Position numbers and translations under genes: made by a program | The notes under the pieces: model-generated | Told to the model about the DNA's origin: nothing | The model's input: only the letters and a program-made list of their open reading frames with translations | The model's database searches: none | DNA from: an uncultured Clostridia bacterium | Lineage (GTDB): Bacteria; Bacillota; Clostridia; TANB77; CAG-465 | NCBI GenBank assembly: GCA_944383015.1 | Contig: CALWOC010000002.1 | Location: forward strand, 262,383-326,382 | Direction: 5' to 3' | DNA length: 64,000 nucleotides | Shown: in pieces, positions 7,609-30,109 of the stretch | Layout of the letters: each line of letters opens with the position of its first letter | How positions within the stretch are numbered: the first letter of the stretch is position 1

Positions 7609-7650
7609 TAAAAAAGGCAATCAAATAGAGGTTAAGATATATGAAAAGGA

Positions 7651-12924: not shown

Positions 12925-12936
12925 TATATTGTTAGA

Positions 12937-13030
12937 TAAATATAATAAAACCCGCTATTTTTAATAAATAGCGGGTAAATTTTATATTTTTTAAATATCT
13001 TGAAAAGTTCCTTGAAATTCTATCTTTTAG
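12937..13030. repeat. attL: imperfect direct repeat copy including a duplicated rpsI terminator hairpin and 3'-end-like sequence
   Basis: Aligns with 30019-30109 at ~75-80% identity; conserved blocks taaatataataaaaccc, ctatttt, gcggg, gaaaagt.ccttg.aatt.atcttttag. Confidence 0.7.
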
Positions 13031-13537
13031 TAAATTACAAATGTGGAAAAATAAAGCTTTATAGGCATTTTTGCATATTGTAAGCATATTGTAAATATAA
13101 GTTTGGAAAGTTTTTTAAACTCTTATATAATAAAAAATTGTAGAGTTTATATAATTTTTCTCTATATATATAAAAATTATATATATTAATTATAAAATAT
13201 ATATTAATATTTTTTTGTACATTTTGTACTAATAAACTTCAAACTATATAAAAATAAATAAAATCTAATATACACATATTTGTACAACTAATGTACTTTA
13301 ATGTACACAAGTATATTTTTATAAATTTATATACAAATATTTAATTTAGAATATAACTAGGATTAATGAGGCTTTATTCTAGTTAATTTTTATTATTAAG
13401 ATATTAAATTATATTATTTTATAAGTAAAATACTCCACAATTAAACCTGGAATCAATTTTATAAAATGTAGAAAAAAATATGTACTTCTCTATTCCAACT
13501 ATATATAATTTACCTCATAGAAAGGAGAATTTACATT

Positions 13538-13855
13538 ATGGAAAATGGAGTTGAAGAACAAAAAATTTTACAACAATTATTTGATGTATTAGACGGCAGA
13601 TTACCTTCGATGACTAAGTATGAAAGAAAAGATTATAATGCATTTGGAGAAAAATTAGAAAAAAGATATAAGTATGTAAAAGACTCAATAGATAACAAAG
13701 ATTATGATAATATACTAAATTCTGTAAATGATTATATTGATATGTCTAATGCAAAAAATTCTTTTATGGACAATTTATATTTTAGAGATGGACTTACTAC
13801 CGGTATTACTCTAATGTGTGAAGTATTTGAAAATAATAAGAATAAGGAAGATTAA
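13538..13855 (+). CDS. hypothetical protein (element cargo)
   Basis: ORF with RBS aaaggaga. Confidence 0.45.
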   Translation: MENGVEEQKILQQLFDVLDGRLPSMTKYERKDYNAFGEKLEKRYKYVKDSIDNKDYDNILNSVNDYIDMSNAKNSFMDNLYFRDGLTTGITLMCEVFENNKNKED

Positions 13856-13961
13856 ACAATTTAAAAAGTGTCATTTTATTAATTTTTTGATAGTAATTAT
13901 ATATATTTACTTAGAAAGTGTATATACTTTTAGTTTATTTTAAGTAAAGGAGTTAATTACT

Positions 13962-15536
13962 ATGATAAAAGATAATATGACACTTTTATTGTATTATGAT
14001 GAAACTACAACCTTAATTTATAATATGATAAATAATAGTGTTTTAGGAAAAATTGATAATGATAGTAGTTTGATTAGATATTTGTTAAATATAATGGAAC
14101 TACACAATGTAAGAGTAAATGAAAATGATTATTTAGTTCTAAGAAAATTAGATAATGTTGTAACTACTCTACAAAGAGTAATAATAGAATTTTATAGTGG
14201 GTATGATGTTAAATTAAAGAAATTATTGAATAAAGGTTATGAAGTAAATCACATTAATAAAGATAAATTAGATAATAGACTTTGTAACTTAGAATTAGTA
14301 TCACACTTAGATAATATAAAACATAGAGATAATAAACAATATACTGTGGTTTATTCTTCTAATGAGTTACTTAAACTACAACATATTGTAAAGATTAACC
14401 AACAATATAAGAAAGATACTATATATTTACAAAAGATGAATAAGTATATAATAGATAGTGTAATAAGAAAAGATAGTAATAAAAGTATAGATAAATGGTT
14501 TGGTTGTAGGTATTGTGATTATTTATTATTTAATAATGTTAAAACTCTAACTAAAAAAAATGCTTCTATAATTAGAGAGAGTAATAATAGAGTTACTTTT
14601 ACTAATGTAAAAAAATATACTAAAAAAAGTGCATTTTCTCCTACTAATATAGATAGAATAATATCTTCTTATGATAGATATATAGTACATAGAACTATAA
14701 TAAATAATATAGAAGTAATAAACAAACTAATTAGTCTAAAACAAAATAGTAATTTTAATCTACTCTTAGAAAAGATAGATTTTATATATATAATAAAAGA
14801 ACTAAAAAATAATTATCTACATACTCCTAATAATTACTTAATAATAGAAGATAATATACTACTTACTCTATCTATAAAAGATATATTTAGAGAAATTAGA
14901 AGTAAAAATAAAAAACTACTTATACTCTACTTACTAAATATATTCAAAAGATTAGATAGTGTAAAAAATAATACTAACTATTTTAAATATAAACAAAGAC
15001 CTACTACTCTAATTATTCCATATTTATTAAAAGAAGATTTTATAAATATAGACCTTATATCTAAGGACTTATTAAATTATTATAAAAATATAACTTACTC
15101 ACTACTTACAAGGAACACGGGTAACACTTCTTCTCAACTAATATATAGAAATAGTAATTTAGAGAATAAATATAAAAATAGAGATATTAAAACTATTGAA
15201 GATATATACACCATTTTATCTAATAACACTGATTTACAAAAGTATGGTTATATTACTATTAAAGATTTAGTTACTTCTCTAAGAGTTTTAAATGAAGAAA
15301 GAAAAAATAATGGACTATCTTACAATAATATTTTAAATGGTACTGAGAAGTTTGTAAGGAGACATCTTAATAAGGACACACAACTTATAAATGATTTATC
15401 TAAAATTGGTATAAAATATATTTCTCTTAATAATAAAACTATCTCCTCTATTCTATCTTATCAAAAAGAGAAAAAGACTTATTCTTTATACCTTAATAAA
15501 AAGGTTATTGTATTATCTAAACTATATAAAAAATAA
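13962..15536 (+). CDS. hypothetical 524-aa protein, extremely N/K/I/Y/L-rich
   Basis: A 1.5 kb stop-free ORF in very AT-rich DNA is unlikely by chance; RBS aaaggag; no recognisable motif. Confidence 0.5.
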   Translation: MIKDNMTLLLYYDETTTLIYNMINNSVLGKIDNDSSLIRYLLNIMELHNVRVNENDYLVLRKLDNVVTTLQRVIIEFYSGYDVKLKKLLNKGYEVNHINKDKLDNRLCNLELVSHLDNIKHRDNKQYTVVYSSNELLKLQHIVKINQQYKKDTIYLQKMNKYIIDSVIRKDSNKSIDKWFGCRYCDYLLFNNVKTLTKKNASIIRESNNRVTFTNVKKYTKKSAFSPTNIDRIISSYDRYIVHRTIINNIEVINKLISLKQNSNFNLLLEKIDFIYIIKELKNNYLHTPNNYLIIEDNILLTLSIKDIFREIRSKNKKLLILYLLNIFKRLDSVKNNTNYFKYKQRPTTLIIPYLLKEDFINIDLISKDLLNYYKNITYSLLTRNTGNTSSQLIYRNSNLENKYKNRDIKTIEDIYTILSNNTDLQKYGYITIKDLVTSLRVLNEERKNNGLSYNNILNGTEKFVRRHLNKDTQLINDLSKIGIKYISLNNKTISSILSYQKEKKTYSLYLNKKVIVLSKLYKK

Positions 15537-15610
15537 GATTTTATCACACTTTCTATATATTTATATGAAAGATATATTAAGTATATCTAAATAAAAGGAG
15601 TGATAACACA

Positions 15611-15802
15611 ATGACTAATATTTACAAAGTAAAAGAAGTAGCAGACATTTTAAAAGTAACACCTCACACTATAAGAAGTTATATTGCAGAGCAGAAACTA
15701 AAAGCTATCTATATGGGTAAAGGTTTTATGATTAGAGAAGATGATTTAGATGAATTTATAAAAAGTAGATATTTATTCCAATACAATAAAGGAGAGAATT
15801 AA
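15611..15802 (+). CDS. excisionase-family (HTH_17/MerR-like) small DNA-binding protein
   Basis: VKEVADILKVTPHTIRSYIAEQKLKAIYMGKGFMIREDDL matches the excisionase-family HTH pattern. Confidence 0.55.
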   Translation: MTNIYKVKEVADILKVTPHTIRSYIAEQKLKAIYMGKGFMIREDDLDEFIKSRYLFQYNKGEN

Positions 15803-16267
15803 ACTTTAAATATAACCCACTAATTCCAGATTTAATCCTAATGAACTTTCTACTTAAAGATATTAAATTATATTACTTAGTAGGTAAAGTTTTTTAAATT
15901 GACACCACTAAAAACTTTCTGAAACTTTAAGTCAAAGTATGTACTTTTTAAAAATCACAATTTAAAATTATACCAAGATGAGAGGTTTAATTGTAAGTAT
16001 AAAGGTGGTGGTTATAGTGTTAGTAAATTTTAGTTTATTTTATATTTTGGTAGATAGACTCATATAGAGATAGACTCTATGTGGGTCATTTTTTAGTATG
16101 AATACCATATTTTAATTGTTTTTCAAAAGTGATAATCTAGGTTTAATTTAAAGAAACTTTTGTATTAAAGATATATAACTAATATAAAAAGATATAAAAT
16201 TTAATCTAGGTTTAATATGGAATCAATGGAGTAAAAAGTTTAGTTTTATTATAAAGGAAGATAAAAA

Positions 16268-16597
16268 ATGAGTAAAAAGGAAAAAATAAGATGTATTTTA
16301 GTAAAGGTATTTGAACAACCAAAAGTAATAGAGATAGAACATAACCTATCTACTTTACAAAAGTATGTTGGTGGTCTAATAGATATTGTAGAGTTAGAAA
16401 ATGATGTAGATATTATTATAAATGATGAAGGTAAATTGTTAGGTCTATCTCCTAACTTAGTTTTATATGAATTTAGAGACATTATAGTTGGAGATTTTTT
16501 AGTGGTAGGTCAAGAAAATGGAGAGACTATATCTTTAAGTGAAGAAAAAATAAAAAAGTATATGGAAAGATTTGATTTAAAAAGGAGACTACTATGA
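16268..16597 (+). CDS. DUF3846 domain protein (conjugative/mobilisable-element-associated family)
   Basis: Pattern IRCILVKV...LQKYVGGLIDIVEL...IIINDEGKLLGL...EKIKKYMERF matches the conserved DUF3846 profile. Confidence 0.5.
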   Translation: MSKKEKIRCILVKVFEQPKVIEIEHNLSTLQKYVGGLIDIVELENDVDIIINDEGKLLGLSPNLVLYEFRDIIVGDFLVVGQENGETISLSEEKIKKYMERFDLKRRLL

Positions 16598-16827
16598 GAG
16601 AAGATGATTTAGATATTGTAGAAATAATACTAAGTAATATTCCACAAAATAGTGAAATTCAAAAGAGAATAAAACTATATATTGAAACTCATAAGAGTAA
16701 TTGTAATGACTATATCTATACCAAATATAGAAAAGAGAGTATATATTTTAATTCTATATTTAAAACTTTAAGAGCAGGTTTAGAAAGTGAAATTGTAAGA
16801 ACTTTAAATAGAAAAGGTATGTTATAA
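16594..16827 (+). CDS. hypothetical small protein
   Basis: ORF overlapping the upstream stop (ATGA coupling). Confidence 0.35.
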   Translation: MREDDLDIVEIILSNIPQNSEIQKRIKLYIETHKSNCNDYIYTKYRKESIYFNSIFKTLRAGLESEIVRTLNRKGML

Positions 16828-16894
16828 ATAAGTGTTACTCTTGTTACTTGTGATTTACAAACTAATTTTGTATAATATAGAAAAGGTGGTTTAA

Positions 16895-17584
16895 ATGGAA
16901 AAAGGAAATGAAAATAAAGGAAATGTATTATATGTATTAAATACATTAAAAAAATATAGTGATGATGAACACATATTAAGTAGTAATGAAATAAAAGAAT
17001 TGATAAAGAAAAATTATGATGTAAATATAGATAGTAGAACTATAAGAAGAAATATAAATTTACTTATAGAAAAGTTTGGTTATGATATATCTACATATAA
17101 TGATAATCGCAAAGGTTATTATTATATTAAAAATATAGATATAGACTTCACATTAGGAGAAATTATTATGATTATAAATCAAATAAAGTTAGCTAATGAT
17201 ATAAATGAAGAAACATCAAATCTTTTGTTAAATAAATTAGAAAAACAAATTAATATATTTGATAGAGAAAAACTAAAATCAAATATAGCAAAAATGAAAG
17301 AACAAAAAACAAAGAATTGGGAATTAGTAAATAGTTTAGAAATAGTTTCACAAGCAATAGAAGAAAAGAAAAAGATACAATTTATACATAATGGAAAGAA
17401 TATTATATACTCTCCACAATATATTGTGTATAGAAAATTTAAAGTACTTACACCTTTTAATTATATAGTTATAGGAATAAATAATACACTTAACAATAAT
17501 ATTGGAATTTTATTAACTAGTATGAAAAATATAAAAATTTTAGATGAAGAGTGTGAGTTTTTAGATGAAGAAAAAAACAAGTAA
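16895..17584 (+). CDS. wHTH-WYL domain transcriptional regulator (BrxR/CapW-like architecture, short form)
   Basis: N-terminal HTH_11-like (VLYVLNTLKKYSDDEHILSSNEIKELI...SRTIRRNINLLIEKFGYDI); C-terminal WYL-like beta-rich region (IQFIHNGKNIIYSPQYIVYRKF...NYIVIG...IGILLTSMKNIKIL). Confidence 0.5.
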   Translation: MEKGNENKGNVLYVLNTLKKYSDDEHILSSNEIKELIKKNYDVNIDSRTIRRNINLLIEKFGYDISTYNDNRKGYYYIKNIDIDFTLGEIIMIINQIKLANDINEETSNLLLNKLEKQINIFDREKLKSNIAKMKEQKTKNWELVNSLEIVSQAIEEKKKIQFIHNGKNIIYSPQYIVYRKFKVLTPFNYIVIGINNTLNNNIGILLTSMKNIKILDEECEFLDEEKNK

Positions 17585-17680
17585 TACATTTTTAGACCAA
17601 CGAAAAATTCATAGTATAAAATTCATATACAAAATAACTTCAAAATGATATACTCTAAATAAATAGTTTGGAGGTTCATT

Positions 17681-18058
17681 ATGGGGTTATTTTTGTTAGA
17701 TGTAGGAATTAAAAAGGAAAGTATATATAAAATGGAAATATTTGATAAAGAAAAGAAAGAAGTAGATATTATAAGAAAAGAATTTAACCTACCTACTTCA
17801 AAAGTATTGTTATATAAAGATGATGATATATTTTATGGTAAAGATAATGTTGAATATTTTACTACATATAAATTAGATAACTTAATAAAAGAACTAAAAA
17901 ACTTTAATAATAGTATAGTAATAATTAACCTATCTAAAATTAAAAACAATAATAGATTTAAGGAAAGAACAAACAATGAATTTTTTAGAATATTAGAGGG
18001 TATTAGTATTGTACTTAATATAAAATTTATTGTTTATGAAATAAAAAAGGAGAGATGA
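17681..18058 (+). CDS. hypothetical protein (WYL-regulator-adjacent)
   Basis: RBS ggagg 6 nt upstream of the ATG; translationally coupled to the next ORF. Confidence 0.4.
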   Translation: MGLFLLDVGIKKESIYKMEIFDKEKKEVDIIRKEFNLPTSKVLLYKDDDIFYGKDNVEYFTTYKLDNLIKELKNFNNSIVIINLSKIKNNNRFKERTNNEFFRILEGISIVLNIKFIVYEIKKER

Positions 18059-18405
18059 AAATTCAAGATATAGTGGTAATTCCATTAGGAGTATTTGGTA
18101 AAGAAATAATAAAAGATATAGTTTTAAATGATAATGTAAAAATTGTATATAGTGATGAACTTAAAGATTTAAACTATAATATACCTCCACTACTCTTATG
18201 TATTATTGGAGATATAAAAGAAAAAGTAGTAAAAGAATTTTTTAACACACATAGTGGTTTTTTCGCTATAAATATTGTTGGTATATTTAAGAAAGATAGT
18301 TATAATAAGGAATATGATTTTATAGATTACTTTTATGAGATAGATAATGAAAAAGTGTTTAAGATATTTTTTGATAACTTTATAAAATTAAATAATAACC
18401 ATTGA
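18055..18405 (+). CDS. hypothetical protein (WYL-regulator-adjacent)
   Basis: ATGA overlap with the upstream ORF; no family recognised. Confidence 0.4.
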   Translation: MKIQDIVVIPLGVFGKEIIKDIVLNDNVKIVYSDELKDLNYNIPPLLLCIIGDIKEKVVKEFFNTHSGFFAINIVGIFKKDSYNKEYDFIDYFYEIDNEKVFKIFFDNFIKLNNNH

Positions 18406-18522
18406 AATGAGGTTTTATTTAGAAGAACTTTCTATACTTAGTTATATAAATTTATATCTATTAGTAGAAAGTTAATTTAAGATATAAAGGAGAAAAAAGA
18501 AGCATACAAAAGTATTATTACA

Positions 18523-18891
18523 CTATTGTATGCTTTTTAATGCAATTAATATACCTTCTAATCTTAGCTTGTTATCATCACTTAAAGAATTATATTCTCT
18601 TAAAATATACTTTTCTTTTTCGCTTAAATCACTTTTAGAAGATAAAATAGATATTGGAGTTGGGTCATTTGTCAAATCTAAAAGATAGTCTGTGGAGCAA
18701 TGAAAATAATTAGCTAATTGTATTATAAACTCAATATTTGAAGTCCTAGTTCCAGACTCTAACCTAGATATAACTTCTTGATAAGTATTATTATCTTCAG
18801 CGACTTTTCTTTGTGAGTAATGATTATCTTCCCTAATTTTTTGTAAATTCTTTTTGGGTGAAATTTCTTTGTTTTTCTTTATTTTATCCAC
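18523..18891 (-). CDS. XRE-family (Cro/CI-type) HTH transcriptional regulator
   Basis: HTH_3 motif LQKIREDNHYSQRKVAEDNNTYQEVISRLESGTRTSNIEFIIQLANYF; likely GTG start at 18891 with RBS aaaaggag (the ORF-track N-terminus looks spurious). Confidence 0.7.
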   Translation of the reverse strand: MDKIKKNKEISPKKNLQKIREDNHYSQRKVAEDNNTYQEVISRLESGTRTSNIEFIIQLANYFHCSTDYLLDLTNDPTPISILSSKSDLSEKEKYILREYNSLSDDNKLRLEGILIALKSIQ

Positions 18892-18930
18892 TCTATCTAC
18901 TCCTTTTATTAAATTATAACAATAAAAGGG

Positions 18931-18979
18931 TTGTAAAAAAAGTCGAAAATTGGTATAATTAGTATGACATATTGTCATA
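18931..18979 (+). promoter_or_regulatory. sigma-A-type promoter (TTGTAA-17-TGnTATAAT) with overlapping palindromic operator TATGACA-N3-TGTCATA
   Basis: -35 at 18931-18936, -10 at 18954-18959, perfect 7-bp inverted arms at 18963-18979 between the -10 and the RBS; divergent from the XRE gene. Confidence 0.5.
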
Positions 18980-18999
18980 TAATATGAGGAGGTTTTTAT

Positions 19000-20046
19000 A
19001 TGGAAAATAACATATTCAAATATGCGACTAAGGAGCTTAGTCAAGATGCTTTTATTTGTTGGTTGGTAGAGTGGATTAATCACAAAGAAGAAAATTCAGA
19101 ATTGTATGAAGTATCAAAAAAGTTTTTAGATAAAATTATAGAAAAGTATAATAAGAAAAACACTAAAAGAAATTTAAAGGTCAATGATTATAATAATGTA
19201 AAAATATTAAAACAAGATAAAAATATAGATGTTTTGATAAGTTTTGAAATTGAAAATAATGAAACAATATACATTATTATTGAAGATAAAAAATTAACTT
19301 CGGAACATGATAATCAAATAAACAAATATAAAAGTAAATTAATTAATAAAGGAATAAAGGAAGAAAATATAATAACTACATATTATAAGATGTTTTATGA
19401 ACCAAATCAAATAGATGTAGATGTATTAATTGATAGAAAGTTTATGCTTGAAATAATGGAAAATTATTATATAAAAAATGATATATACATTGATTATTAC
19501 AATTATTTAAGTTTGATAGAATATAAGTGTAAAAACATCAAAAAGTTTCCATTGAAAGAAATTAATGAAAATAAATTTTTGCTATATGAATTACAAAAAA
19601 TATATTGTAGTCATAGTGTAAAAAAACAAATAGAAAAATGTGGTGTTGGTTGGTTTAGAGGTAGTTTACTTTATACGTGGTATATAAGAGAATTAGATAA
19701 AGATTACTTCTTAGATTATTTATATCTTGAAACAAAACTTAGATTAGATAGATATGAATTACAAATTAGAGGTCGCTTTGAGGATAAAGAAAATGGTAAG
19801 TTAAAATATAATGAAGATGAAAGAAATAAATTACAAGAAAAAATAGAAAAATATTTTTCAAATAATAGTAATATAAAATTTGAAAAATTTAATAAAAGAG
19901 AAGCTAATGAGTCAATGATTTTAGCTAAGGTTAAACTACATTTTAAGAAAGATGAAGAATATAAAGTTAGTGATTTATTAAATCTAATGGAAGAATTAGA
20001 AAGAGTATTAGATTTATTTATTGAAAATAAAGAATATAAAAATTAA
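19000..20046 (+). CDS. hypothetical protein with putative N-terminal PD-(D/E)xK nuclease motif
   Basis: NIDVLISFEIENNETIYIIIEDKK fits hhhD-x17-E-x-K; first gene of an XRE-controlled operon. Confidence 0.4.
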   Translation: MENNIFKYATKELSQDAFICWLVEWINHKEENSELYEVSKKFLDKIIEKYNKKNTKRNLKVNDYNNVKILKQDKNIDVLISFEIENNETIYIIIEDKKLTSEHDNQINKYKSKLINKGIKEENIITTYYKMFYEPNQIDVDVLIDRKFMLEIMENYYIKNDIYIDYYNYLSLIEYKCKNIKKFPLKEINENKFLLYELQKIYCSHSVKKQIEKCGVGWFRGSLLYTWYIRELDKDYFLDYLYLETKLRLDRYELQIRGRFEDKENGKLKYNEDERNKLQEKIEKYFSNNSNIKFEKFNKREANESMILAKVKLHFKKDEEYKVSDLLNLMEELERVLDLFIENKEYKN

Positions 20047-20054
20047 AAAGGAAT

Positions 20055-21146
20055 GTGATAAGTATGTATTGTGAAAAATGTGGAAATAAACTAGATGATG
20101 ATAGTAAATTCTGTGATAAATGTGGAACTGTTATAGAAACTACTGATAATATAAAGAAAAGTAAAGACAATGTTTTTAAAAAATTTATATTACCTTTAAT
20201 TTTAGTTACATTATTTATTATATTAATTTTTATAGGAGCAAATTTAATTTTAAATAAACATAATGAAAAATCAGAAGAATATAAACAAGAAATTAATGAA
20301 GAACTTGATAAAAAAGTTATAGCTACATATAATGGTGGAAAACTTACAGATGAAGAGTTTGAAATATATTATAAAATGTTTATAGATTATTTAAGAGATA
20401 AAAAATATAATGAAAGTGAAATACCAAAAATAGTAGTAAATAAAGCAATTATAGATAAATTAGTTTTAACTGAATCACACAAAAACAACATAAAAATCAC
20501 ACAAGAACAAGAAAAAGAACTAAATGAAACTTTTGAAAGTGAAGATTTTAAGAATTTGTGTGTTAATAATAACATTGATAATGAAAAATTAAAAGAACTA
20601 TATAGAAATGATTACATTATAACTAATTATATTGAAGAACAAGCTAAGAATTTGAGCGATAGTGAAGTTATAACATATTTAAAAAATAAGTATGGTAATG
20701 ATGTAGACTTATACCAATATACTACTCAAACAATAATGTTTTTAAATAATTCTGAATTTACAGCAGAGCAGAATGCTATATCAATGCTTAACTATATAAA
20801 ACAAGGAGCAGATTTTACAGAGATGGCTAAATTATATTCAGAAGATGAAGGAACAAGAGATAATGGTGGAATATATATATGTTATGATGATGAAAACACA
20901 GATGAAAATTATTTTAATGCTATAAAACTATTAACTCCAGGAGATGTGAATAAAGAAGTAGTTACAACTGGTAATGGTTATGCAGTAGTTAAGTTAGTAT
21001 CAAAAGTAGAAAATGGTAGAGCAAAAAATGAACTAGATAGGAAAAATATTATAAATGAAAGATTAGATAAATTATCTAGTGAATCTAATATAGTTATAAA
21101 TGATGAGGCACTAAATCAAGTAGTACAAGAATTAGATAATAAATAA
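20055..21146 (+). CDS. membrane protein: N-terminal zinc ribbon, one TM helix, C-terminal parvulin-type PPIase domain
   Basis: CEKCGNKLDDDSKFCDKCG; TM LPLILVTLFIILIFIGANLIL; parvulin-like ISMLNYIKQGADFTEMAKLYSEDEGTRDNGG...GNGYAVVKLV. Confidence 0.5.
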   Translation: MISMYCEKCGNKLDDDSKFCDKCGTVIETTDNIKKSKDNVFKKFILPLILVTLFIILIFIGANLILNKHNEKSEEYKQEINEELDKKVIATYNGGKLTDEEFEIYYKMFIDYLRDKKYNESEIPKIVVNKAIIDKLVLTESHKNNIKITQEQEKELNETFESEDFKNLCVNNNIDNEKLKELYRNDYIITNYIEEQAKNLSDSEVITYLKNKYGNDVDLYQYTTQTIMFLNNSEFTAEQNAISMLNYIKQGADFTEMAKLYSEDEGTRDNGGIYICYDDENTDENYFNAIKLLTPGDVNKEVVTTGNGYAVVKLVSKVENGRAKNELDRKNIINERLDKLSSESNIVINDEALNQVVQELDNK

Positions 21147-21160
21147 TATGAGGTGATTTT

Positions 21161-21634: not shown

Positions 21635-21647
21635 AAAATATAATAAG

Positions 21648-21681
21648 TGAGAGTAATACTATGTGTACTACTCTCATTTTT
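21648..21681. terminator. terminator between convergent SHOCT gene and small recombinase gene
   Basis: tgagagta-loop-tactctca hairpin followed by T-run. Confidence 0.55.
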
Positions 21682-21759
21682 TGACTAATTTGTCTAAAAG
21701 TGATATTCATATTTGTATTTTAAGACACTTTTATTATTAAGATATAAAATTATATTAAC

Positions 21760-22329
21760 TTATAAGCAAAAGTCATCATACATATTGTTGATTTCATCTT
21801 GTGATATACCTATATATCGAAGTGTGATACTAGGGCTACTATGATTAAATATTGTTTGCAACATAGCAACATCAGCATATTTTTTATAGTTGTGGAAACC
21901 GAATGTCTTTCTCATAGTGTGAGTTCCTATACTATCAGTGATACCAACCATTTTTGCTGCATCATTAAGAAATCTATATACTTGTGTGCGCGTAAGAGAT
22001 TGATTAGCTCCTTTCCTACTTTTAAAAATATACTCATATTGTTGCATTTGTTTAGTGTAATCTTCTAGTTCTTTTTTTAATTCGACATTAAATCTAAATG
22101 TCTTCTTTTTATTTGTTTTCTTTTCTATAATTGTAATGTCATCTCGCATAGTACCATTTTCATATCTAATATCACTTACTTTAAGCTTTATAATATCTGA
22201 TACCCTTATACCAATATTTATACCTACTTTGAAAATAAGATAATTTCTTTTGCCTTTTCCTTGTTCTAATAATACTTTTTTCATTTCTTCGATTTTGTTC
22301 AAATCTCTAATTGGTTCTACTAAATTCAT
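21760..22329 (-). CDS. small (189 aa) tyrosine recombinase lacking an arm-binding domain (FimB/FimE- or Xer-like size class)
   Basis: Catalytic R...HxxR...Y (GTHTMRKTFGFH ... LRYIGIS); the last 4 codons overlap repeat R3. Confidence 0.7.
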   Translation of the reverse strand: MNLVEPIRDLNKIEEMKKVLLEQGKGKRNYLIFKVGINIGIRVSDIIKLKVSDIRYENGTMRDDITIIEKKTNKKKTFRFNVELKKELEDYTKQMQQYEYIFKSRKGANQSLTRTQVYRFLNDAAKMVGITDSIGTHTMRKTFGFHNYKKYADVAMLQTIFNHSSPSITLRYIGISQDEINNMYDDFCL

Positions 22330-22582
22330 ACTACATACATCTCCTTAAATTTTTATACATTATAATACATTGAATGTAATTCGTACATATTTTTTATTAC
22401 ATTTACTAAAAGTTATTTTTATAAAATGCTTTCTAAGTATTGAAATATAAACAAATAACACATTTTCTTTGAATAAATCAGAATTTCTAATTTGATACAT
22501 TGGCGCTTATTTTTTTATAAAAAAATTATTGAATAGCTATAATATGTGATATGGTACAAAAAATAGGAATAGCTTATATAAA

Positions 22583-23752
22583 CTATTCCTTTTCCCATAA
22601 ATTTTTTAAATAATCAACACTATAATTATATTTTTGTTTTTTTGCTTTTATCTCCACACACATTTTTTTAAATTTCTTAATATCATTAGAATCTTTATTT
22701 GTTTTATTTATACTATTATATACAGATTTAAAATAGTATTTTACAGGTTCGTATTTATCTTTATTATTTTTCATACCTTTTTGCATACTTTCCAAAGTTC
22801 TATTATATAAGTTTTGTAGTTCATCTTGCTTAGTCTTTTGATAATTGACTTTTTTTCCACAAATGGTACTACAAGTTTTTTTCTTTTTGTCATTAGAAAT
22901 AAAATAATTATCACAAAATTCACATCTTTTTACTTGTGTTTTGTTTAAAATCATTTGTTCAATTTCAAAAATGCCTAGTTCTTTTATAGTTTTAAAATAT
23001 TTATTATAACTAATAGATACATTAGAGCTTTTTATTCTGTTTAGTAATTGCCTATCTGAAAGTCCAATAAAATTATCTTTTTCTTTAAAAACAAAAGTAT
23101 TATCAGAAACATTAATTTTATTATTTATAAATATCATATCCAGTAATTCTTGCTCAGTCATATATGTTAATATAATATGTAAGTTACTTAAATCATTTTT
23201 ACATTGGAAGTAAGCTAGCCTTTTGTTTAATGATAAATCATTTAGATTTGTGTTATTGACATCAAGTATATAATAAACTGCTTTCTTCAATGTTTTTTGA
23301 CAAGCTATTAAATATTCTATCAGATATTTACCATAGCTAGAAATTACGTTTTTAATCGCCTCGTTCATATTAGGACTAGTATTAGTAATTGTTTTGTTAA
23401 ACTCATCTATATCATGTTCTCTAACTTTCCTTAAATTTTCTTCTAGTTCATTAATATGCAAATCAACATATTTGCAACTACTCTTTATTGTTCTTATAAA
23501 CTTAACATATTTGCATAAGTAACTATATGCATCTAAACAGTTAGGATAACCAGTAATATCACTATTTGCATAATCAATATTATAAAATTTTATTTTATTT
23601 TTTGAAACAAATTTTGCAGTAACTTCTTCGACTTTTGTAATATAGTCTGTTAAATCTGCATTTAAAAAATCAATAAGTGCTGTACCATATTTCACTTTGC
23701 TTATAATTAAATCATTTGTATAGGTTTTGTTATCTATTATATTTATATACAT
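22583..23752 (-). CDS. hypothetical protein with C-terminal Cys4 zinc-ribbon (CEFC...CSTIC)
   Basis: ORF; terminator hairpin overlaps the stop codon; separate transcription unit upstream of the small recombinase. Confidence 0.45.
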   Translation of the reverse strand: MYINIIDNKTYTNDLIISKVKYGTALIDFLNADLTDYITKVEEVTAKFVSKNKIKFYNIDYANSDITGYPNCLDAYSYLCKYVKFIRTIKSSCKYVDLHINELEENLRKVREHDIDEFNKTITNTSPNMNEAIKNVISSYGKYLIEYLIACQKTLKKAVYYILDVNNTNLNDLSLNKRLAYFQCKNDLSNLHIILTYMTEQELLDMIFINNKINVSDNTFVFKEKDNFIGLSDRQLLNRIKSSNVSISYNKYFKTIKELGIFEIEQMILNKTQVKRCEFCDNYFISNDKKKKTCSTICGKKVNYQKTKQDELQNLYNRTLESMQKGMKNNKDKYEPVKYYFKSVYNSINKTNKDSNDIKKFKKMCVEIKAKKQKYNYSVDYLKNLWEKE

Positions 23753-24013
23753 CTTTTTTCCTCCTAAATTGCGTAGTAAAAAAATTCACTTTTTTCAATA
23801 TTTTTTACTACTCCTACACTTTAACAAATTCCAAGAAAATGCGTTGACATCAAGGTTTTTATCGTTTATAATTGTTTTATCACGTGATAATGCGTAGTAA
23901 AAATATAAAAATATTATACTACGAAATAATAAAAGTTACAATAGCATTTAAGCTACTTGTAAAATTGTACATTGAAAAGCGCATATTGTAACAAAATGAA
24001 AGGAGTGATAGGC

Positions 24014-24568
24014 ATGTATAAGCCTATAATTGAAAAGTTTCAGCAGATAAAAGGTGAAGCAGTACAAAAAAATCAAGATGTATTATTATTAGTAAAAACC
24101 GATGAGGGGTACGCAAGAATTACTGAAAATATTGCAGTATTCTTAGAGAAAAAAGACATGGGTCCTAACGAACTTCCAAGAATAAAATTGAAGTTCGCTA
24201 ATGGGCAAATAGTCATAGTCTATGGATATAGTGATGACACTATAACTCCAGGTACTATTGTTAGTTCCTTAGGCTACTTCACAAAGAATTGTGATGTACT
24301 CCAATATTCTAATAGGTGTGGTATGACAAGAGTCTATAACACGGCTAAAGAAATTGGAAGAGTTAAAGTAGAGTATCCATACAGACTAGGTTTTTGGGAA
24401 CTTACAACTCCACAAGAATCAACCCTATATCAACCCTCAACTGAGTTTAAACAACTTGAAGATAATATCTACTATTTTATAGGAGATGTTTCAACACTTC
24501 AAGAAGTACCAAAACTTGAAGAGGGAGAAATTGATGTTACTAACTGTGGCGACTACTTTTATGCTTAA
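24014..24568 (+). CDS. hypothetical protein
   Basis: RBS aaaggag 8 nt upstream of the ATG at 24014. Confidence 0.4.
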   Translation: MYKPIIEKFQQIKGEAVQKNQDVLLLVKTDEGYARITENIAVFLEKKDMGPNELPRIKLKFANGQIVIVYGYSDDTITPGTIVSSLGYFTKNCDVLQYSNRCGMTRVYNTAKEIGRVKVEYPYRLGFWELTTPQESTLYQPSTEFKQLEDNIYYFIGDVSTLQEVPKLEEGEIDVTNCGDYFYA

Positions 24569-24647
24569 TAGTAACAAGGTCATATTAAAGGAAAATATAT
24601 TAAAGCTATGTTTTCCTTTAGTATATAAATGTAAGGAGGAATTTAAA

Positions 24648-25544
24648 ATGGAAAATGATAATATGTTGTTAGAACATAAGCAAAATGAGATACTTGAAGA
24701 TATAAGAAAACTTGTGAAAAAATATAAGTCAGAACTTAAACATATAGATTTTAATATAAACAGTATTGAAAATTTGTATGATACTTTTAATAATAAACTG
24801 TTTAATCTAGTATATGAGAAAATATATAATGGAGAGAATTTTGACTATGTTAGAGATAATTATAAATATCGTATTTATAATCAAGAAAGTATTTTAAAGT
24901 CAATGCCAAATGATATTAAGACTAATGTATCTAAATCTATTATAGATGAAATATTAAGATTTTATAATAGAATAATAGATTCGTATTACTGTGTTAATAC
25001 TACTAAATACTTAAATGAAATAAATTATGCTATTTTTAATACAGAAGAGGAATATTATAATAAAGATTATAAATTTTATAGTCCATTTTTCAGAGATTTT
25101 GCTATTGAAACTTTAATTTGTAGATTAGGAAGTTTAGGCAATATATCTGATTATGAACCTATTTATAAACTAAACTCAAACGATAAAACGTTTATATGTA
25201 AAATTTTAAATGATAGGCAGATTATGGCAAGCCTAATAATAGAGGACAACGTACATCTTTACTGTATTTTTTTAGATAGTATTGTATGTATAGGATGTAT
25301 GAAATGTAAATCTATGACTGAAGATGAGTTTCTTAATGGATTACCAAACCTTGTAGATGAATTTCAAAAACATAGTTGTTTTGACCATATTGAAATATTA
25401 GATGCTATAAGAAGTTATTATTATTATATTTTTGATAGTAAGGCAGATATAAATATAAATAGTCAAACTCTACTATCATTATTAGATTCAATTAATATAA
25501 CTAATTACTTATTAAGATATGCTTTTAGTGTATATGATGAGTAA
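24648..25544 (+). CDS. hypothetical Cys-rich protein
   Basis: RBS aaggagg before the ATG at 24648 (the ORF-track start at 24486 overlaps the previous gene). Confidence 0.4.
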   Translation: MENDNMLLEHKQNEILEDIRKLVKKYKSELKHIDFNINSIENLYDTFNNKLFNLVYEKIYNGENFDYVRDNYKYRIYNQESILKSMPNDIKTNVSKSIIDEILRFYNRIIDSYYCVNTTKYLNEINYAIFNTEEEYYNKDYKFYSPFFRDFAIETLICRLGSLGNISDYEPIYKLNSNDKTFICKILNDRQIMASLIIEDNVHLYCIFLDSIVCIGCMKCKSMTEDEFLNGLPNLVDEFQKHSCFDHIEILDAIRSYYYYIFDSKADININSQTLLSLLDSINITNYLLRYAFSVYDE

Positions 25545-25746
25545 AATAGCTTAAAAAATGTGTACAAACTGATGTTTGTTTTATATAATAAAAAATAGAA
25601 AGAATTTTATAGATTAGGCCCCTAAAAAATTCTTTCAACTCAAAAAAATTATGGAAATGCATTTGTTTTTACATTTCTATTATATTATATGATAAGAATT
25701 GCGAAAAATCAAGTGTATTTCCTTTTTAATAAAAGGAGGTAGAAAA

Positions 25747-28521
25747 GTGAGTATTGATGAACTAAAAATTGTTCTAAGTAACAAAGAAGTTGTAGAACAC
25801 TATTTAGGACCAGGCGTAGTTAGCGGAAACAATATAAAGTACAGCAGTCCTTTCAGAGATGGAGATTCAGAACCATCTCTTAGCGTATCAGATGAGCATA
25901 TAAAAGATTTTGGTGGCGATTTTTCTGGAGACTTTATAAATTTTGTTGCAAGATATAAAAATGTTTCTGAAAAACAAGCTATTGATATTATTAAAAAAGA
26001 TTTTCAAATAGATGATAATGTTACATATAGTAAATCAATATCTAAAAGAAAGTCAAATCAAAATAATTCAGAATCTAAGAATGCTATTAATGTACGTTTA
26101 GCAGAAAAAACAAGCACAATAGCGTGTATGTTTGATGAAGTTGAATTTTCTGAAAAGCCAAAAGGTTATGAAGTCGGAGGTATAAAAAATAGGATTAATG
26201 AAAATCAGTTTAAGGGCTACACATTAGAAGAAATAAAACAAAATATTGTTTTAGGAAAAACAACTATACCAGCAGGCATTAAAGGTAATGCTAAAGAAAA
26301 TTTTAAAGGACAACAACTATATATGATAGATATAGATAATGCTATTGAAGAAAATGGAAAGAAAGTAAATTTTACTATTGATGATGAAAGACATATCACA
26401 ATAGAGAAGATTATTGAGCATTGCAAACAAATAAATCTATTACCTACATTTGCATATTATAGTTTCAGTCATAGCGAAAAACAACATAAGATGAGGTTAG
26501 TATATATATTAAATGAAGTGATAACAGATTATGAAATAGCGAAAGGCTTTATTAATTATTTATTAGACAAGCTAAGTATATTCTATCCTGATTCTAAACC
26601 AACAAATTTGGCAAGTATGTTTTTTGGTGGTAAATCAATAGCTTATGAAAGTGATATTTTTTATAAGTTAGATATAGTAAAAGTAAAAGAAAAAGAAGTT
26701 AAAAGGAAAGCTAATTCTAATATTCCTAATGATTATCAAAAGGACATTGAATTATTAGAAAATAGCAATTATGTTTTTGCAGAATATGGCATATATGAAA
26801 AGAAAGAGAAAATATCTAATTTTGTACCAATTATAACAAAAGAGATTATATATGATAATGGAAATGGAGAGAAGTCAGCAGTATATAAAATTAAAGCAGT
26901 TTTGAGTAATGGGGATATATTAAATGAAGTGGAAGTAAAAATTGAAGATTTTACATCTATGAAGTGGCTGATAAATGAAACTTGGAAGATGCTACCAATA
27001 GTAAATGCAGGAGTAAGTAATAAGGATAAACTTCGTGAAGTTACACAAATAGTATCTAAAAATATGCAGAAAGAAGTTGTATATACACATACTGGTTTTA
27101 TAAAACAAAATGATAAGTATGTATATTTGTACAACAATGGTAATATTGGTGGAGATGATACTATAAAAGTTAATCTTGATGATAGTTTAGTTAGATATGA
27201 ATTTACAAATCAAGAATATGATTTGAAAGAGTGTCTACAACTAGTATATAGCATTTTAGATATAGCAGATAAAAAGATAACTTTACCATTAGTTGCTTTT
27301 ACATATCTAGCTCCTTTGGTATCACTTTTAGATGAATTAGGAATTGTACCAGATTTTTTAATGGCAGTTGTAGGAGTAAGTGGTAGTAGAAAGAGTTCAT
27401 TATCAGCTTTATTAAATTGTCATTATGGTAGATTTGATAAAGACAGTTTTGTATGTAGTTGTAAAGATACTATAAATAGTATTGAGCTTAGAAGTAATTT
27501 ATTAGCAGATACTTTGGTGGTATTAGATGATTACTATCCTAGTACGGAAACAAATGAAGCTAAAAAGATGAAAAACACTCTTGAAAAAGTTATAGCTATA
27601 TACGGAGATCGTTCAGCTAGAGGTAGATTAAATGTAGATGTTACTTTAAGGAAAGCATATAAAGCTAAGGGCTTGTGTTTAGTAACTGGCGAGTCTTTTC
27701 CAGATGTTTCAGAAAGCAGATTAGCAAGATGTTTTATTATTGACTTAAAAAAGGATAGTATAGATTTAGATAAACTAACTATACTTCAAAGAAATAAAGA
27801 TAAATTATCTTATGCAATGAAACAATATATTAAAGTTCTAATAGCAAACATTGAGAAGATTAAAAATAATGCTAAAGATAAATTTGAAAAATATAGAAAT
27901 AATATTACAAATAATTTATTGCATGGAAGAACGGCCGAAATAATATGTTTCTTACAAATATCTTTTGAATTATTTATTAACTTTCTAATATCTTATGAAA
28001 TAATAAGAGAACAAGACAAAGAGAAACTGCTTAAAGAAAGTTGGGATATTTTAAATTTTGTAGCAAATGAACAAACTTTAAAAATACAAGATAATAAACC
28101 TATAAGTATGTTTTTTAATGCTATAAGTCAACTTGAAAATACCGGAAAAATATATATAGTTAGAAACTGGCAAGAGTCTTATTTAACAGATAATAAAAAT
28201 AAAACTCTTATAGGTTTTGTAGATGAAACAAAAGATGAGTACAATAACTATTATTATTTTTTCCCAGAAACTGTACTAAATGAAGTATCTAAGTTTTATT
28301 CACAACAAGGTATAAAATTTCCTATAAATAAAACCGGACTTCAAAAACATTTAGCAGATGAGGGATATTTGAAAACTGGTAGTGATAGAGCAACTATTAG
28401 AAAGAAAATGCCAGGTCCTACTTCAAGAGATAAAACAGAAATAGTATGGGCAGTAAAAAAAGATAAAGTTCCATATTTAGAATTACAACCTTATGGAACT
28501 AATCCACCTAATTGTGATTAA
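25747..28521 (+). CDS. primase-helicase-like replication protein (degenerate CHC2-like N-terminus, AEP/prim-pol DIDN motif, P-loop region)
   Basis: GTG start after RBS aaaggagg; N-terminus resembles a DnaG zinc finger with the Cys residues replaced; LYMIDIDNA acidic motif; GVSGSRKSS P-loop-like with LVVLDDYY Walker-B-like. Confidence 0.45.
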   Translation: MSIDELKIVLSNKEVVEHYLGPGVVSGNNIKYSSPFRDGDSEPSLSVSDEHIKDFGGDFSGDFINFVARYKNVSEKQAIDIIKKDFQIDDNVTYSKSISKRKSNQNNSESKNAINVRLAEKTSTIACMFDEVEFSEKPKGYEVGGIKNRINENQFKGYTLEEIKQNIVLGKTTIPAGIKGNAKENFKGQQLYMIDIDNAIEENGKKVNFTIDDERHITIEKIIEHCKQINLLPTFAYYSFSHSEKQHKMRLVYILNEVITDYEIAKGFINYLLDKLSIFYPDSKPTNLASMFFGGKSIAYESDIFYKLDIVKVKEKEVKRKANSNIPNDYQKDIELLENSNYVFAEYGIYEKKEKISNFVPIITKEIIYDNGNGEKSAVYKIKAVLSNGDILNEVEVKIEDFTSMKWLINETWKMLPIVNAGVSNKDKLREVTQIVSKNMQKEVVYTHTGFIKQNDKYVYLYNNGNIGGDDTIKVNLDDSLVRYEFTNQEYDLKECLQLVYSILDIADKKITLPLVAFTYLAPLVSLLDELGIVPDFLMAVVGVSGSRKSSLSALLNCHYGRFDKDSFVCSCKDTINSIELRSNLLADTLVVLDDYYPSTETNEAKKMKNTLEKVIAIYGDRSARGRLNVDVTLRKAYKAKGLCLVTGESFPDVSESRLARCFIIDLKKDSIDLDKLTILQRNKDKLSYAMKQYIKVLIANIEKIKNNAKDKFEKYRNNITNNLLHGRTAEIICFLQISFELFINFLISYEIIREQDKEKLLKESWDILNFVANEQTLKIQDNKPISMFFNAISQLENTGKIYIVRNWQESYLTDNKNKTLIGFVDETKDEYNNYYYFFPETVLNEVSKFYSQQGIKFPINKTGLQKHLADEGYLKTGSDRATIRKKMPGPTSRDKTEIVWAVKKDKVPYLELQPYGTNPPNCD

Positions 28522-28674
28522 TGTACATTTTATTTGTACATTGATACAAATGTATGTAATACAACAAATGTTTATATATCAACCATTTGAAGATATATGT
28601 ACAAAATGTACAAAAATAAATTAGATATATATACAATATATAAATAATAAAAAAAAAAAGAAAGGAATGTTTTT

Positions 28675-28866
28675 ATGAAAAATAATATTAGTATAAAAGA
28701 AGCAGCTGAAAAAATGGGAAAATCAAAAGAATTTGTTAGAATTGGACTACAAAGAAATCTCTTACCTTTTGGTATGGCACAGAAAATGAGTTCAAGATAC
28801 ACATATTATATATCTCCTATAAAGTTTTATGAATATATTGGTAAACTTGAAAGGAGTCAACAATAA
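28675..28866 (+). CDS. excisionase (Xis)-like small HTH protein
   Basis: 63 aa, ISIKEAAEKMGKSKEFVRIGLQRNLLPF HTH; immediately upstream of int and overlapping it (ATGA). Confidence 0.55.
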   Translation: MKNNISIKEAAEKMGKSKEFVRIGLQRNLLPFGMAQKMSSRYTYYISPIKFYEYIGKLERSQQ

Positions 28867-29921
28867 TGAGATTACCTAATGGTTATGGATCTGTAATTCA
28901 TAATAAAAATAAGAATAGAAGAAATCCTTATCAAGTTAGAATTACAAAAGGTTGGACTGATGATGGTAAGCAAATATATTCAACATTAGGCTTCTATAAA
29001 GATAAAAAAACAGCTTTGGAAGCCTTAGCTGAATATAATTCTAATCCATATGATATTGAAACAAATAAAATAACATTTGAAGATGTATATAAAAAATGGT
29101 CAAAGGAACATTTTCCAAAAGTAAGTGATAGCTCTATTGAAAGATATGGAAATGCTTATAGAAAATATTGTAAATCTTTATATAATATGAGATTTAAAGA
29201 TATTAGATTAACACATTTACAAGGTGTTATTGATAACTGTGGAATGGCACACCCTACTAGAGCTTCAATAAAAACTTTATTTAATGTATTATTTAAGTTT
29301 GCTATGAAAAATGATATTATTGATAAAGACTACTCAAAATATGTAGATGTAGGACAAAGAGAGGGAAAAATAAATAGAACTCCTTTTAGCAAAGAAGAAA
29401 TAAAAAAGCTTTTTGAAAATGTTGATAAATTAGATTTTATAGATACTATATTAATTATGATTTATACTGGTCTAAGAGTCGGAGAATTGCTAGATTTAAA
29501 AATAAAAAATATACACTTAAAAGAGAGATATATGATTGGTGGGTTTAAAACTAAAGCTGGTACTGATAGAATTATACCAATAAATAGAAAAATAGAGCCA
29601 TTTATAAAAAAATATTATGAAAAAAATAAAGATAAAGAATTTCTTATTACAAACTTTAAAGGTAATCAAATGAATTATTCAAATTATAGAAGAGAAAAAT
29701 TTGATAATATTATGGAAAAACTAAGAATGAAACATAATCCACATGACTGCCGCCATACTTTTGCTGGGCTTATGGATAGTGCAGGTGGTGCTGGTGCTGG
29801 TGCTAGTGCTAATAAGCTGTGTATCAAAAGAATAATGGGGCACGCTTCACAAGATATTACTGATGATATATATACACATAAAACTTTGGAAGAATTAATA
29901 GAAGCAATTGATTTAATTTAA
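28866..29921 (+). CDS. int: tyrosine integrase with N-terminal AP2-like arm-DNA-binding domain
   Basis: N-terminus LPNGYGSVIHNKNKNRRNPYQVRITKG (arm-binding domain); C-terminal catalytic RHTFAG...LMGHAS...IYTH; adjacent to attR. Confidence 0.85.
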   Translation: MRLPNGYGSVIHNKNKNRRNPYQVRITKGWTDDGKQIYSTLGFYKDKKTALEALAEYNSNPYDIETNKITFEDVYKKWSKEHFPKVSDSSIERYGNAYRKYCKSLYNMRFKDIRLTHLQGVIDNCGMAHPTRASIKTLFNVLFKFAMKNDIIDKDYSKYVDVGQREGKINRTPFSKEEIKKLFENVDKLDFIDTILIMIYTGLRVGELLDLKIKNIHLKERYMIGGFKTKAGTDRIIPINRKIEPFIKKYYEKNKDKEFLITNFKGNQMNYSNYRREKFDNIMEKLRMKHNPHDCRHTFAGLMDSAGGAGAGASANKLCIKRIMGHASQDITDDIYTHKTLEELIEAIDLI

Positions 29922-29940
29922 AAAGTAAATTAACATAAAG

Positions 29941-29974
29941 TGTGCATATTGCGTGCATATTGTGTGCATATTGT
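29941..29974 (+). repeat. three tandem 11-bp repeats gtgcatattg(c/t) between int and attR (candidate arm-type integrase sites)
   Basis: tgcatattg at 29944, 29955 and 29966. Confidence 0.5.
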
Positions 29975-30018
29975 TGAGCAAATTTTATATGTTTTCTAGC
30001 CTTTTTATAAAGTTTTAA

Positions 30019-30109
30019 TAAATATAATAAAACCCACTATTTTCAACGAATAGCGGGTTTTTTCTAACTTTTTTAACTTTACCGAAAAGTCCTTGTAATT
30101 ATCTTTTAG
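30019..30109. repeat. attR: direct repeat copy overlapping the rpsI terminator and last codons
   Basis: Aligns with 12937-13030; covers the rpsI stop codon (30099-30101) and the bidirectional terminator hairpin cccactatttt-caacg-aatagcggg + T6. Confidence 0.7.

Follow-up and report, generated by a model that had tools for sequence, protein, structure and literature searches.

The 3′ end of rpsI, the gene for ribosomal protein S9, is a published integration hotspot in Bacillota (PMC5341023, PMC5357655, PMC5090054, PMC7487436). In Macrococcus caseolyticus it holds McRImecD-1 and McRImecD-2, resistance islands of 16–18 kb that include one large gene annotated as virulence-associated protein E (virE); circular excision has been demonstrated for McRImecD-1 (PMC5341023), and the McRImecD integrase functions in Staphylococcus and Bacillus (PMC13304753). 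A prophage and elements resembling phage-inducible chromosomal islands (PICIs) have been reported at rpsI in group B Streptococcus (PMC7487436). Among streptococcal integrative and mobilizable elements (IMEs) and integrative and conjugative elements (ICEs), three integrase families target the gene, with long or short repeats (PMC5357655, PMC4701971, PMC5090054, PMC5704250). We found no paper in the literature describing such an rpsI element in Clostridia. Here we analyze one, carried in a stretch of 64,000 nucleotides (the window) from an uncultured Clostridia bacterium (contig CALWOC010000002.1, positions 262,383 to 326,382). With a probability that we put at roughly 90%, it is an integrative genomic island of 17,079 bp, inserted by its own tyrosine integrase through site-specific recombination into the last codons of rpsI.

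This kind of element is already described, and the present copy is a further example with its own host class, cargo, repeat length and xis–int layout. A first-pass annotation of the window, made from the letters alone, had called the 3′ end of a ribosomal-protein gene an unusual target; given the documented hotspot, this was overstated. The McRImecD elements (PMC5341023) are alike in lying in the rpsI 3′ end at a comparable size, in having an element-side repeat that ends rpsI while the other repeat is the displaced native end, in an exchange mapped to the first bases of the att site, in a tyrosine integrase beside rpsI and in being without transfer genes. They differ in host (Bacilli versus uncultured Clostridia), in repeat length (160–163 bp versus ~94 bp here), in cargo (a mecD operon, whereas no resistance gene was found here) and in layout: a divergent Cro/CI-type regulator and xis lie by int there, whereas here xis and int are co-directional and downstream of a primase-helicase gene. 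The streptococcal IMESag-rpsI and ICEs (integrases Tyr_4, Tyr_5 and Tyr_7; PMC5090054, PMC5357655, PMC4701971) also occupy the rpsI 3′ end by means of tyrosine integrases and show mosaic, modular evolution in which integration modules are exchanged. However, they carry relaxases (e.g. MobV) or full conjugation modules, and Rep_trans; none of these was found here, where a Cch/D5-type primase-helicase is the proposed replication protein.

To compare the locus among independent metagenome contigs, including those of the same species, contigs were found by exact-protein look-ups with RpsI (131 aa), with the 88-aa protein encoded on the left flank and with a 105-aa protein of the element (13538–13855); a look-up with its 524-aa HNH protein returned nothing. 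The RpsI look-up gave 22 contigs. In 10 an integrase gene adjoins rpsI, and in the other 12 rpsI is followed after ~145 nt by the 88-aa gene, which is the left-flank gene of the window (12607..12873, minus strand). The reciprocal look-up with the 88-aa protein gave 11 occupied and 12 empty contigs. The empty contigs belong to the same species, about half of whose contigs lack the element. In nucleotide alignment the empty site reads ...TCTAAAAGATAG (over a longer stretch, ...CAATTCTCTAAAAGATAG) and continues into a trailer identical to the left copy of the end repeat, while the occupied site reads ...TCTAAAAGATAA (...CAATTCTCTAAAAGATAA) and continues into the right copy. The left repeat is therefore the displaced native rpsI trailer, and the right repeat is the element's. 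The rpsI stop codon changes from TAG in the empty state to TAA in the occupied state, and the RpsI protein is identical in both. The element thus spans 13031..30109 or, equivalently, 13021..30099.

These alignments show that 17 kb is integrated at rpsI and where it begins and ends, that the site also exists empty, that the gene end was replaced silently and that the population is polymorphic. The first-pass annotation had proposed looking for an empty site in relatives, and the 12 empty contigs join the flanks exactly through one copy; its claim that the element replaced the 3′ end and terminator of rpsI with its own copy agrees with the empty and occupied sequences. It had also counted the left repeat as part of the element, and this we correct, as the DNA is chromosomal up to ~13020–13030 and the element proper starts at 13031 (or 13021). 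A tRNA scan and an Rfam search over the window gave no matches, so the target is not an RNA gene. The features of the junctions are as follows.

12936..13020, minus strand: native rpsI trailer, now displaced, with its intrinsic terminator (outside the element, on the chromosomal B′ side of attL), identical to the single copy in the empty-site contigs L002 and L003; hairpin and U tract.
13021..13030, no strand: attL copy of the 10-bp core, also in attR and the empty attB.
30018..30098, minus strand: element-borne rpsI trailer and terminator (P′ side), which now terminates rpsI; found in occupied sites only; folds as a terminator.
30099..30494, minus strand: rpsI (ribosomal protein S9), the target gene; same 131-aa protein in empty and occupied contigs.
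30100..30109, no strand: attR copy of the 10-bp core, over the last codons and stop of rpsI, placed by alignment of empty and occupied sites and by the second-host junctions.
30508..30942, minus strand: rplM.

The 10-bp core common to attL, attR and the empty attB is tatcttttag (CTAAAAGATA on the rpsI strand). A second host lineage carries the same element (loci L087, L089, L092 and L109), with attR reading ...CAATTCTC|TAAAAGATAA-TTACAAGG and attL reading ...GTAATTTAC|AAAGAGATAG-TTTCAAGG. That host's own core, AAAGAGATAG, is mismatched with the element's, TAAAAGATAA, and the mismatches in the second-host junctions therefore resolve the exchange to TC|T, at 30108|30109 and 13029|13030. This point is the upstream edge of the homology. 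The predicted junctions are ...CCGAAAAGTCCTTGTAATTATCTTTTAG|TAAATTACAAATGTGGAAAAATAAAGC... for attP and ...CAATTCTCTAAAAGATAGAATTTCAAGG... for attB. On the chromosomal side of attL, the 88-aa gene matches PHROG 1090, a phage protein family without function (E 2e-20). The second host lineage does not have this gene; there attL abuts a PAS-domain gene (15944–16249 of L109). Possibly the 88-aa gene was left behind by an element that had inserted earlier at the rpsI site.

The two end repeats had been put at ~75–80% identity, and a formal MAFFT alignment (12936–13030 against 30018–30109) gives a mean column identity of 76%, with an identical 18-nt block, ATAAATATAATAAAACCC, and the block tatcttttag common to both. 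Locally aligned, the two score 54, far above what 2000 shuffled versions of the right copy reach (mean 11.8, maximum 22) and above the highest score for any other 100-nt tile of the window (25). A repeat search of the window returned the pair 12936–13008 and 30018–30090, at 79% identity; the window has no second such pair. The right repeat overlaps the rpsI stop codon together with the three codons before it. Read on the rpsI strand, each copy folds into a stable hairpin (−19.5 and −21.1 kcal/mol; no shuffle is as stable) with a U tract after it, in keeping with the shared terminator hairpin noticed at first pass. The element-borne trailer is 77% identical to the native trailer of host 1, 70% to that of host 2 and 73% to that of the sister element L010, and the native trailers of hosts 1 and 2 are 73% identical to each other. 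All these rpsI trailers, whether element-borne or chromosomal, therefore belong to a single homologous set. Because int is convergent with the rplM–rpsI operon, the element-borne terminator would also part rpsI transcription from antisense transcription of int. One empty-site allele (L004, ~6470–6500) has changes in the terminator loop (..TTTACTGAAAATAGTGGG..), two of which agree with the element-borne copy where the common host allele differs, perhaps through gene conversion between the repeats, perhaps by coincidence.

The recombination module lies at the two ends of the element and consists of the following.

13073..13094, plus strand: two arm-type repeats GCATATTGTAA with an 11-bp period (P′ arm of attP); three more copies of the 8-mer lie at the opposite element end.
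28675..28866, plus strand: Xis-like protein of 63 aa, proposed to act as recombination directionality factor; the stop codon overlaps the start of int; PHROG 6058 (E 1e-21), function unannotated.
28866..29921, plus strand: tyrosine integrase of 351 aa; Pfam Phage_integrase (E 1e-21) and SAM_3; PHROG_1 integrase (E 1e-57).
29940..29974, plus strand: three arm-type repeats GTGTGCATATT with an 11-bp period (P arm).

The integrase had been recognized as a tyrosine recombinase at first pass. Besides the family matches, its catalytic residues R204, K228, H293, R296, H326 and Y336 all fall in columns that are invariant across a 15-sequence alignment. We collected 2257 homologues at E ≤ 1e-20, and a scan of one genome per species gave 80 loci. 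In 37 of these a convergent rpsI–rplM pair begins 126–214 bp after int, and in three more it is 0.5–2.1 kb away. Proximity to rpsI depends on identity to the query: it holds in all six informative loci at ≥60%, in 33 of 42 at 44–60% and in one of 23 below 44%. The family is thus specific for rpsI. Its hosts include Clostridia, many Bacilli (Lentibacillus, Oceanobacillus, Lysinibacillus, Geomicrobium, Gracilibacillus), Desulfosporosinus and Propionispira, together with metagenome-assembled genomes labelled Fusobacterium and Mycoplasmatota, labels that need caution. Relatives at 49–53% identity adjoin rpsI in Lentibacillus, Oceanobacillus and other Bacilli, and a tblastn search of the integrase against phages reached at most 43% identity. 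What is targeted is the conserved S-K-R-stop end of the gene, a specificity that the integrase clade keeps across many genera down to ~44% identity. With the present element, the range of rpsI-targeted islands known from Bacilli (Macrococcus, Staphylococcus, Bacillus, Streptococcus) now takes in uncultured gut Clostridia, and the integrase, Xis and att set is a possible site-specific integration tool for Clostridia.

Homologues of the Xis-like protein accompany the integrase family in 46 of the 80 loci, which favors its original naming. In the closest clade its gene is co-directional and just upstream of int, while in distant relatives it is divergent and 1–3.7 kb upstream. An arm-binding N-terminal domain had also been claimed for the integrase. 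The only Pfam match there is sub-threshold (Arm-DNA-bind_4, E 0.009), but the DNA does contain arm-type repeats. The 8-mer GCATATTG occurs nine times in 64 kb against 2.25 expected, and five of the nine copies, all on the same strand, lie within ~160 bp of the cores (13073 and 13084; 29944, 29955 and 29966). Directly after the int stop, 35 of the 37 rpsI-adjacent relatives have three to five tandem 11-bp repeats, whose sequence varies with the integrase clade, and in the family loci a terminator hairpin lies between the arm repeats and the rpsI stop. Within int itself, a hexanucleotide repeat (TGGTGC × 4.2, 29786–29810) encodes an eight-residue Gly/Ala-rich insertion (..SAGGAGAGASANK..) relative to the closest homologues of 343 aa. 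As several hosts share the identical 351-aa integrase, the insertion is presumably tolerated.

We compared the window with L087 and L089 in 500-nt blocks. Inside the element the blocks are mostly 98–100% identical, with a lowest value of 95%. Outward from ~30100 the identity drops, to 93–94% (L087) and 90–93% (L089) over rpsI–rplM and to 72–84% beyond. A near-identical element at the same site between far more diverged flanks indicates recent horizontal transfer between host lineages, and suggests that such islands have recently been mobile in gut communities. A third type of flank (L111) carries a decayed copy, with a 240-aa integrase remnant (7471–8193) and large internal deletions, and truncated integrases of 240–244 aa are found at the rpsI site in dozens of contigs. 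The site accumulates decaying copies. A whole-element megablast search against a plasmid collection gave no match.

From these data we propose the following course of events. The attP site carries a homologous rpsI end, comprising the S-K-R codons, the stop and ~80 nt of trailer with an intrinsic terminator, and strand exchange takes place at the upstream edge of this homology, at TC|TAAAAGATA on the rpsI strand. Once the element is integrated, its own DNA forms the end of rpsI: the protein is unchanged, the stop codon is TAA instead of TAG and a working terminator comes from the element, while the native trailer is shifted 17 kb to the far element end. By contacting both the core and the arm-type repeats (three on one arm and two on the other, at 11-bp spacing), the integrase probably bridges them; the 63-aa Xis-like protein probably directs excision, and the primase-helicase probably replicates the excised circle. 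Since the element itself lacks genes for packaging and conjugation, interspecies transfer would need a helper (a phage or conjugative element) or transformation. A comparable arrangement is that of lambdoid phage 21 and e14 at icd of Escherichia coli, which lie inside the 3′ end of a protein-coding gene, supply a replacement end and leave the gene functional. However, these are a prophage and a defective prophage of Proteobacteria, with another target gene. The present locus is a clear-cut natural case in which an element brings along a working copy of the stop codon and terminator of the gene it targets, and it leaves current concepts unchanged.

The element was treated as 19 open reading frames (ORFs), which were scanned with Pfam, PHROGs, NCBIfam and PADLOC. 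Its interior contains the following features.

13375..13430, plus strand: internal repeat A with AAGATATTAAATTATATTA; other copies at 15834–15889 and 21716–21771.
13538..13855, plus strand: protein of 105 aa, function unknown; sub-threshold matches only.
13962..15536, plus strand: 524-aa protein with an HNH_3 endonuclease motif (Pfam PF13392, E 4.7e-8; PHROG families annotated HNH endonuclease).
15611..15802, plus strand: HTH_17 (excisionase/MerR-type) DNA-binding protein, 63 aa (Pfam PF12728, E 5.6e-12).
16268..16597, plus strand: DUF3846 protein (Pfam PF12957, E 2e-26).
16895..17584, plus strand: putative WYL-like regulator, 229 aa (PADLOC WYL model, E 1.2e-5; no Pfam match).
18523..18891, minus strand: XRE-family HTH regulator, 122 aa, a candidate repressor, divergent from the next operon (Pfam HTH_19 and HTH_3; PHROG transcriptional regulator/repressor).
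19000..20046, plus strand: 348-aa protein with weak PD-(D/E)XK nuclease similarity (Pfam PDDEXK_4, E 8e-4, below cutoff; PADLOC PDC-S26, E 7e-10).
20064..21634, plus strand: two zinc-ribbon membrane proteins (360-aa PpiC-type rotamase and 157-aa SHOCT), variable cargo.
21760..22329, minus strand: catalytic-domain-only tyrosine recombinase, 189 aa, in a ~770-bp cassette at 21680–22447 (Pfam Phage_integrase, E 2e-24).
22583..23752, minus strand: protein of 389 aa, function unknown, probably variable cargo; no family match.
24014..25544, plus strand: proteins of 184 aa and 336 aa upstream of the primase-helicase, functions unknown; no family match.
25747..28521, plus strand: primase-helicase, 924 aa, with a DnaG-type CHC2 zinc finger followed by a Cch/D5-type superfamily 3 (SF3) helicase; proposed replication protein.

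The DUF3846 assignment made at first pass is confirmed. Two further excisionase-type HTH genes had been claimed as well; one is present (the HTH_17 gene), while the other regulators are XRE-type and WYL-like. PADLOC gave weak matches only (WYL and PDC-S26), with no defence system that could be claimed, and NCBIfam and relaxed Pfam searches of the ORFs of unknown function and of segments of the primase-helicase returned nothing useful. Homologues of the 184-aa protein are present in the sister elements L008 and L013.

Sequence matches of the 924-aa protein are all sub-threshold (Pfam zf-CHC2, E 7.7e-5; weak matches to PHROG DNA-primase families; DnaG 2au3, E 0.011). Its predicted fold bears out the naming as a primase-helicase. 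An AlphaFold2 model built with 36 homologues has a mean predicted local distance difference test score (pLDDT) of 83.9. A Foldseek search of this model against the PDB returned first Cch (5dgk, E 2e-14) of the staphylococcal cassette chromosome mec (SCCmec), then poxvirus D5/E5, Pri-Rep of the Staphylococcus aureus pathogenicity island (SaPI) SaPI5 (7ola) and PriRep1 (7pds). The Cch match covers the C-terminal two-thirds of the protein, with a template modelling (TM) score of 0.60 normalized to the target. We infer that the 924-aa protein is the element's replication protein. Proteins of the virE family are of the P-loop primase/helicase type, which would make the virE product of McRImecD analogous to it. 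In having Cch as its best structural match, the element resembles the SCCmec replication module. SCCmec is likewise an island at the 3′ end of a conserved housekeeping gene; SCC elements, however, use serine recombinases (CcrAB/CcrC) and target rlmH (orfX), not rpsI.

The interior varies between copies. In L089 (2233–2766) a single 177-aa zinc-ribbon protein takes the place of the PpiC-type and SHOCT proteins, and the position 20064–21634 is therefore a cargo slot. In L112 a different 436-aa gene is found at the position of the 389-aa gene, and tblastn of the 389-aa protein gave no match there. The 189-aa recombinase matches a tyrosine-type DNA invertase (FimB/E-type) in NCBIfam, and its ~770-bp cassette is reversed in L087 (2898–3666), L090 and L109 (6499–7068), and also in L112 (6499–7068). 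A simple invertible switch is unsupported, however, as the reversed copy has an identity of just 82% at the DNA level and 81% at the protein level, between flanks of ~98–99%, and no terminal inverted repeats of the cassette were found. The region looks like an exchangeable cassette rather than an on/off switch. A 19-nt motif, AAGATAT(T/A)AAATTATATTA, lies inside a 35–56-nt repeat in direct orientation at 13398–13416, 15857–15875 and 21739–21757, with a degenerate fourth copy at ~16125–16181. One copy is just past the stop of the small recombinase and travels with its cassette. In L111 (~13018) the 2.46-kb segment between copies A and B, with the 105-aa, HNH and HTH_17 genes, is deleted exactly through the motif. 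The motif may be a recombination site, possibly that of the 189-aa recombinase, or equally a mere point of repeat-mediated deletion.

The left half of the element, from the 105-aa gene to the SHOCT gene together with the small recombinase, recurs at 81–100% protein identity in two other settings, each with an unrelated integrase and different replication genes: one has a 418-aa integrase and a 972-aa protein, the other a 387-aa integrase and a DUF927 protein (798 aa). Sibling elements with this left half (L106, L108, L110 and L112) have RepA_N and ArdA genes as well. L106 and L108 have the module boundary within the small recombinase gene, whose first 61 residues are fused to a different protein. 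The XRE protein is indexed in 740 collection blocks, about tenfold the number for the rpsI integrase (70). Together these data indicate a mosaic island, in which an integration and replication module specific for rpsI is joined to an accessory module that is widely shared.

Several observations weigh against an island that is inserted and moved by its own integrase. No excised form was detected: the exact DNA of the predicted attP junction is absent from IMG/VR and JGI metagenome contigs, and none of 23 integrase-bearing contigs joins int to the left end of the element. Decayed copies with truncated integrase are common, and activity is therefore not a feature of every copy. For the Xis-like protein there was no Pfam match, and its PHROG family has no assigned function; the primase domain call draws on sub-threshold sequence matches and a predicted structure. 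The missing junction and the frequent truncated-integrase copies at rpsI would fit a defective prophage or a fixed, immobile remnant. Against this, int, xis and the primase-helicase are full-length in the window copy, zero phage structural genes were found, about half of the species' contigs are without the element, and a ~100% identical element is present in hosts with 73–94% identical flanks; we consider a remnant highly improbable. That the repeats are ordinary paralogous terminators with 17 kb of core genome between them could be argued from both copies looking like functional terminators, but the idea is refuted by the 12 contigs that join the flanks exactly through one copy, and the identity step between lineages falls at the repeat.

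How an integrase-inserted island would travel is a further question, and the gene content bears on it. At 17 kb the element is too small for a complete ICE. Among the 19 ORFs there was no Pfam, PHROG or NCBIfam match to capsid, portal, terminase, tail or lysis families, nor to relaxases (MobV, MobT, MobP, MobQ), a coupling protein or a type IV secretion system. The packaging and interference genes terS, cpm and ppi likewise had no match in these collections among the ORFs, several of which have no assigned function. Hallmark genes of prophages, IMEs and ICEs are thus not found in the element, whereas its size, its int, regulator and pri-rep genes and its lack of structural genes agree with PICIs and SaPIs. 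A phage satellite of that type would be silenced by a repressor, excised upon induction by a helper, replicated by its primase-helicase and packaged in helper capsids. SaPIs and PICIs indeed share with the element int and xis, a primase-helicase of the same fold class (7ola, 7pds) and a dedicated att site in a conserved gene, and an XRE-type regulator is present. Helper packaging would explain the near-identical copies in two host lineages, and distant relatives have a SaPI-like int with divergent xis. PICI-like elements have also been reported at rpsI in group B Streptococcus (PMC7487436), and McRImecD has been called SaPI-like (PMC5341023, PMC13304753). However, no terS, ppi, capsid or capsid-size redirection gene was recognized, the attP junction has no match in IMG/VR viral contigs, xis and int point the same way and follow the primase gene, no divergent repressor lying beside int (not the int–stl–str layout), and no helper phage is known. 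We therefore regard a satellite as a possibility worth keeping in view, but one that is rather unlikely. An IME would instead be excised and moved through the mating pore of a co-resident conjugative element, by means of an unrecognized relaxase or an origin of transfer (oriT) mimicking that of the helper. The rpsI gene is a classic site of streptococcal IMEs and ICEs (PMC5357655, PMC5090054, PMC5704250), siblings with ArdA and RepA_N genes share the left module and, with it, the DUF3846 gene, and several ORFs have no assigned function; the lack of any match to a relaxase, coupling protein or secretion system in any ORF makes this unlikely, and no oriT was identified, though without a model to search with.

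More speculatively, and with considerable doubt, the element and its relatives might form an undescribed, widespread rpsI-targeting family in uncultured gut Clostridia, marked by a Cch/D5-type primase-helicase, a conserved Xis and clade-specific 11-bp arm repeats. Such a family would move between species as a new satellite or helper-dependent island and swap its accessory module among at least three unrelated integrase and replication modules, possibly via the 189-aa recombinase and the 19-nt site. As to the setting, the window is AT-rich, with ~26% G+C, and rplM–rpsI is on the minus strand, while almost all neighboring genes and the GC skew favor the plus strand.

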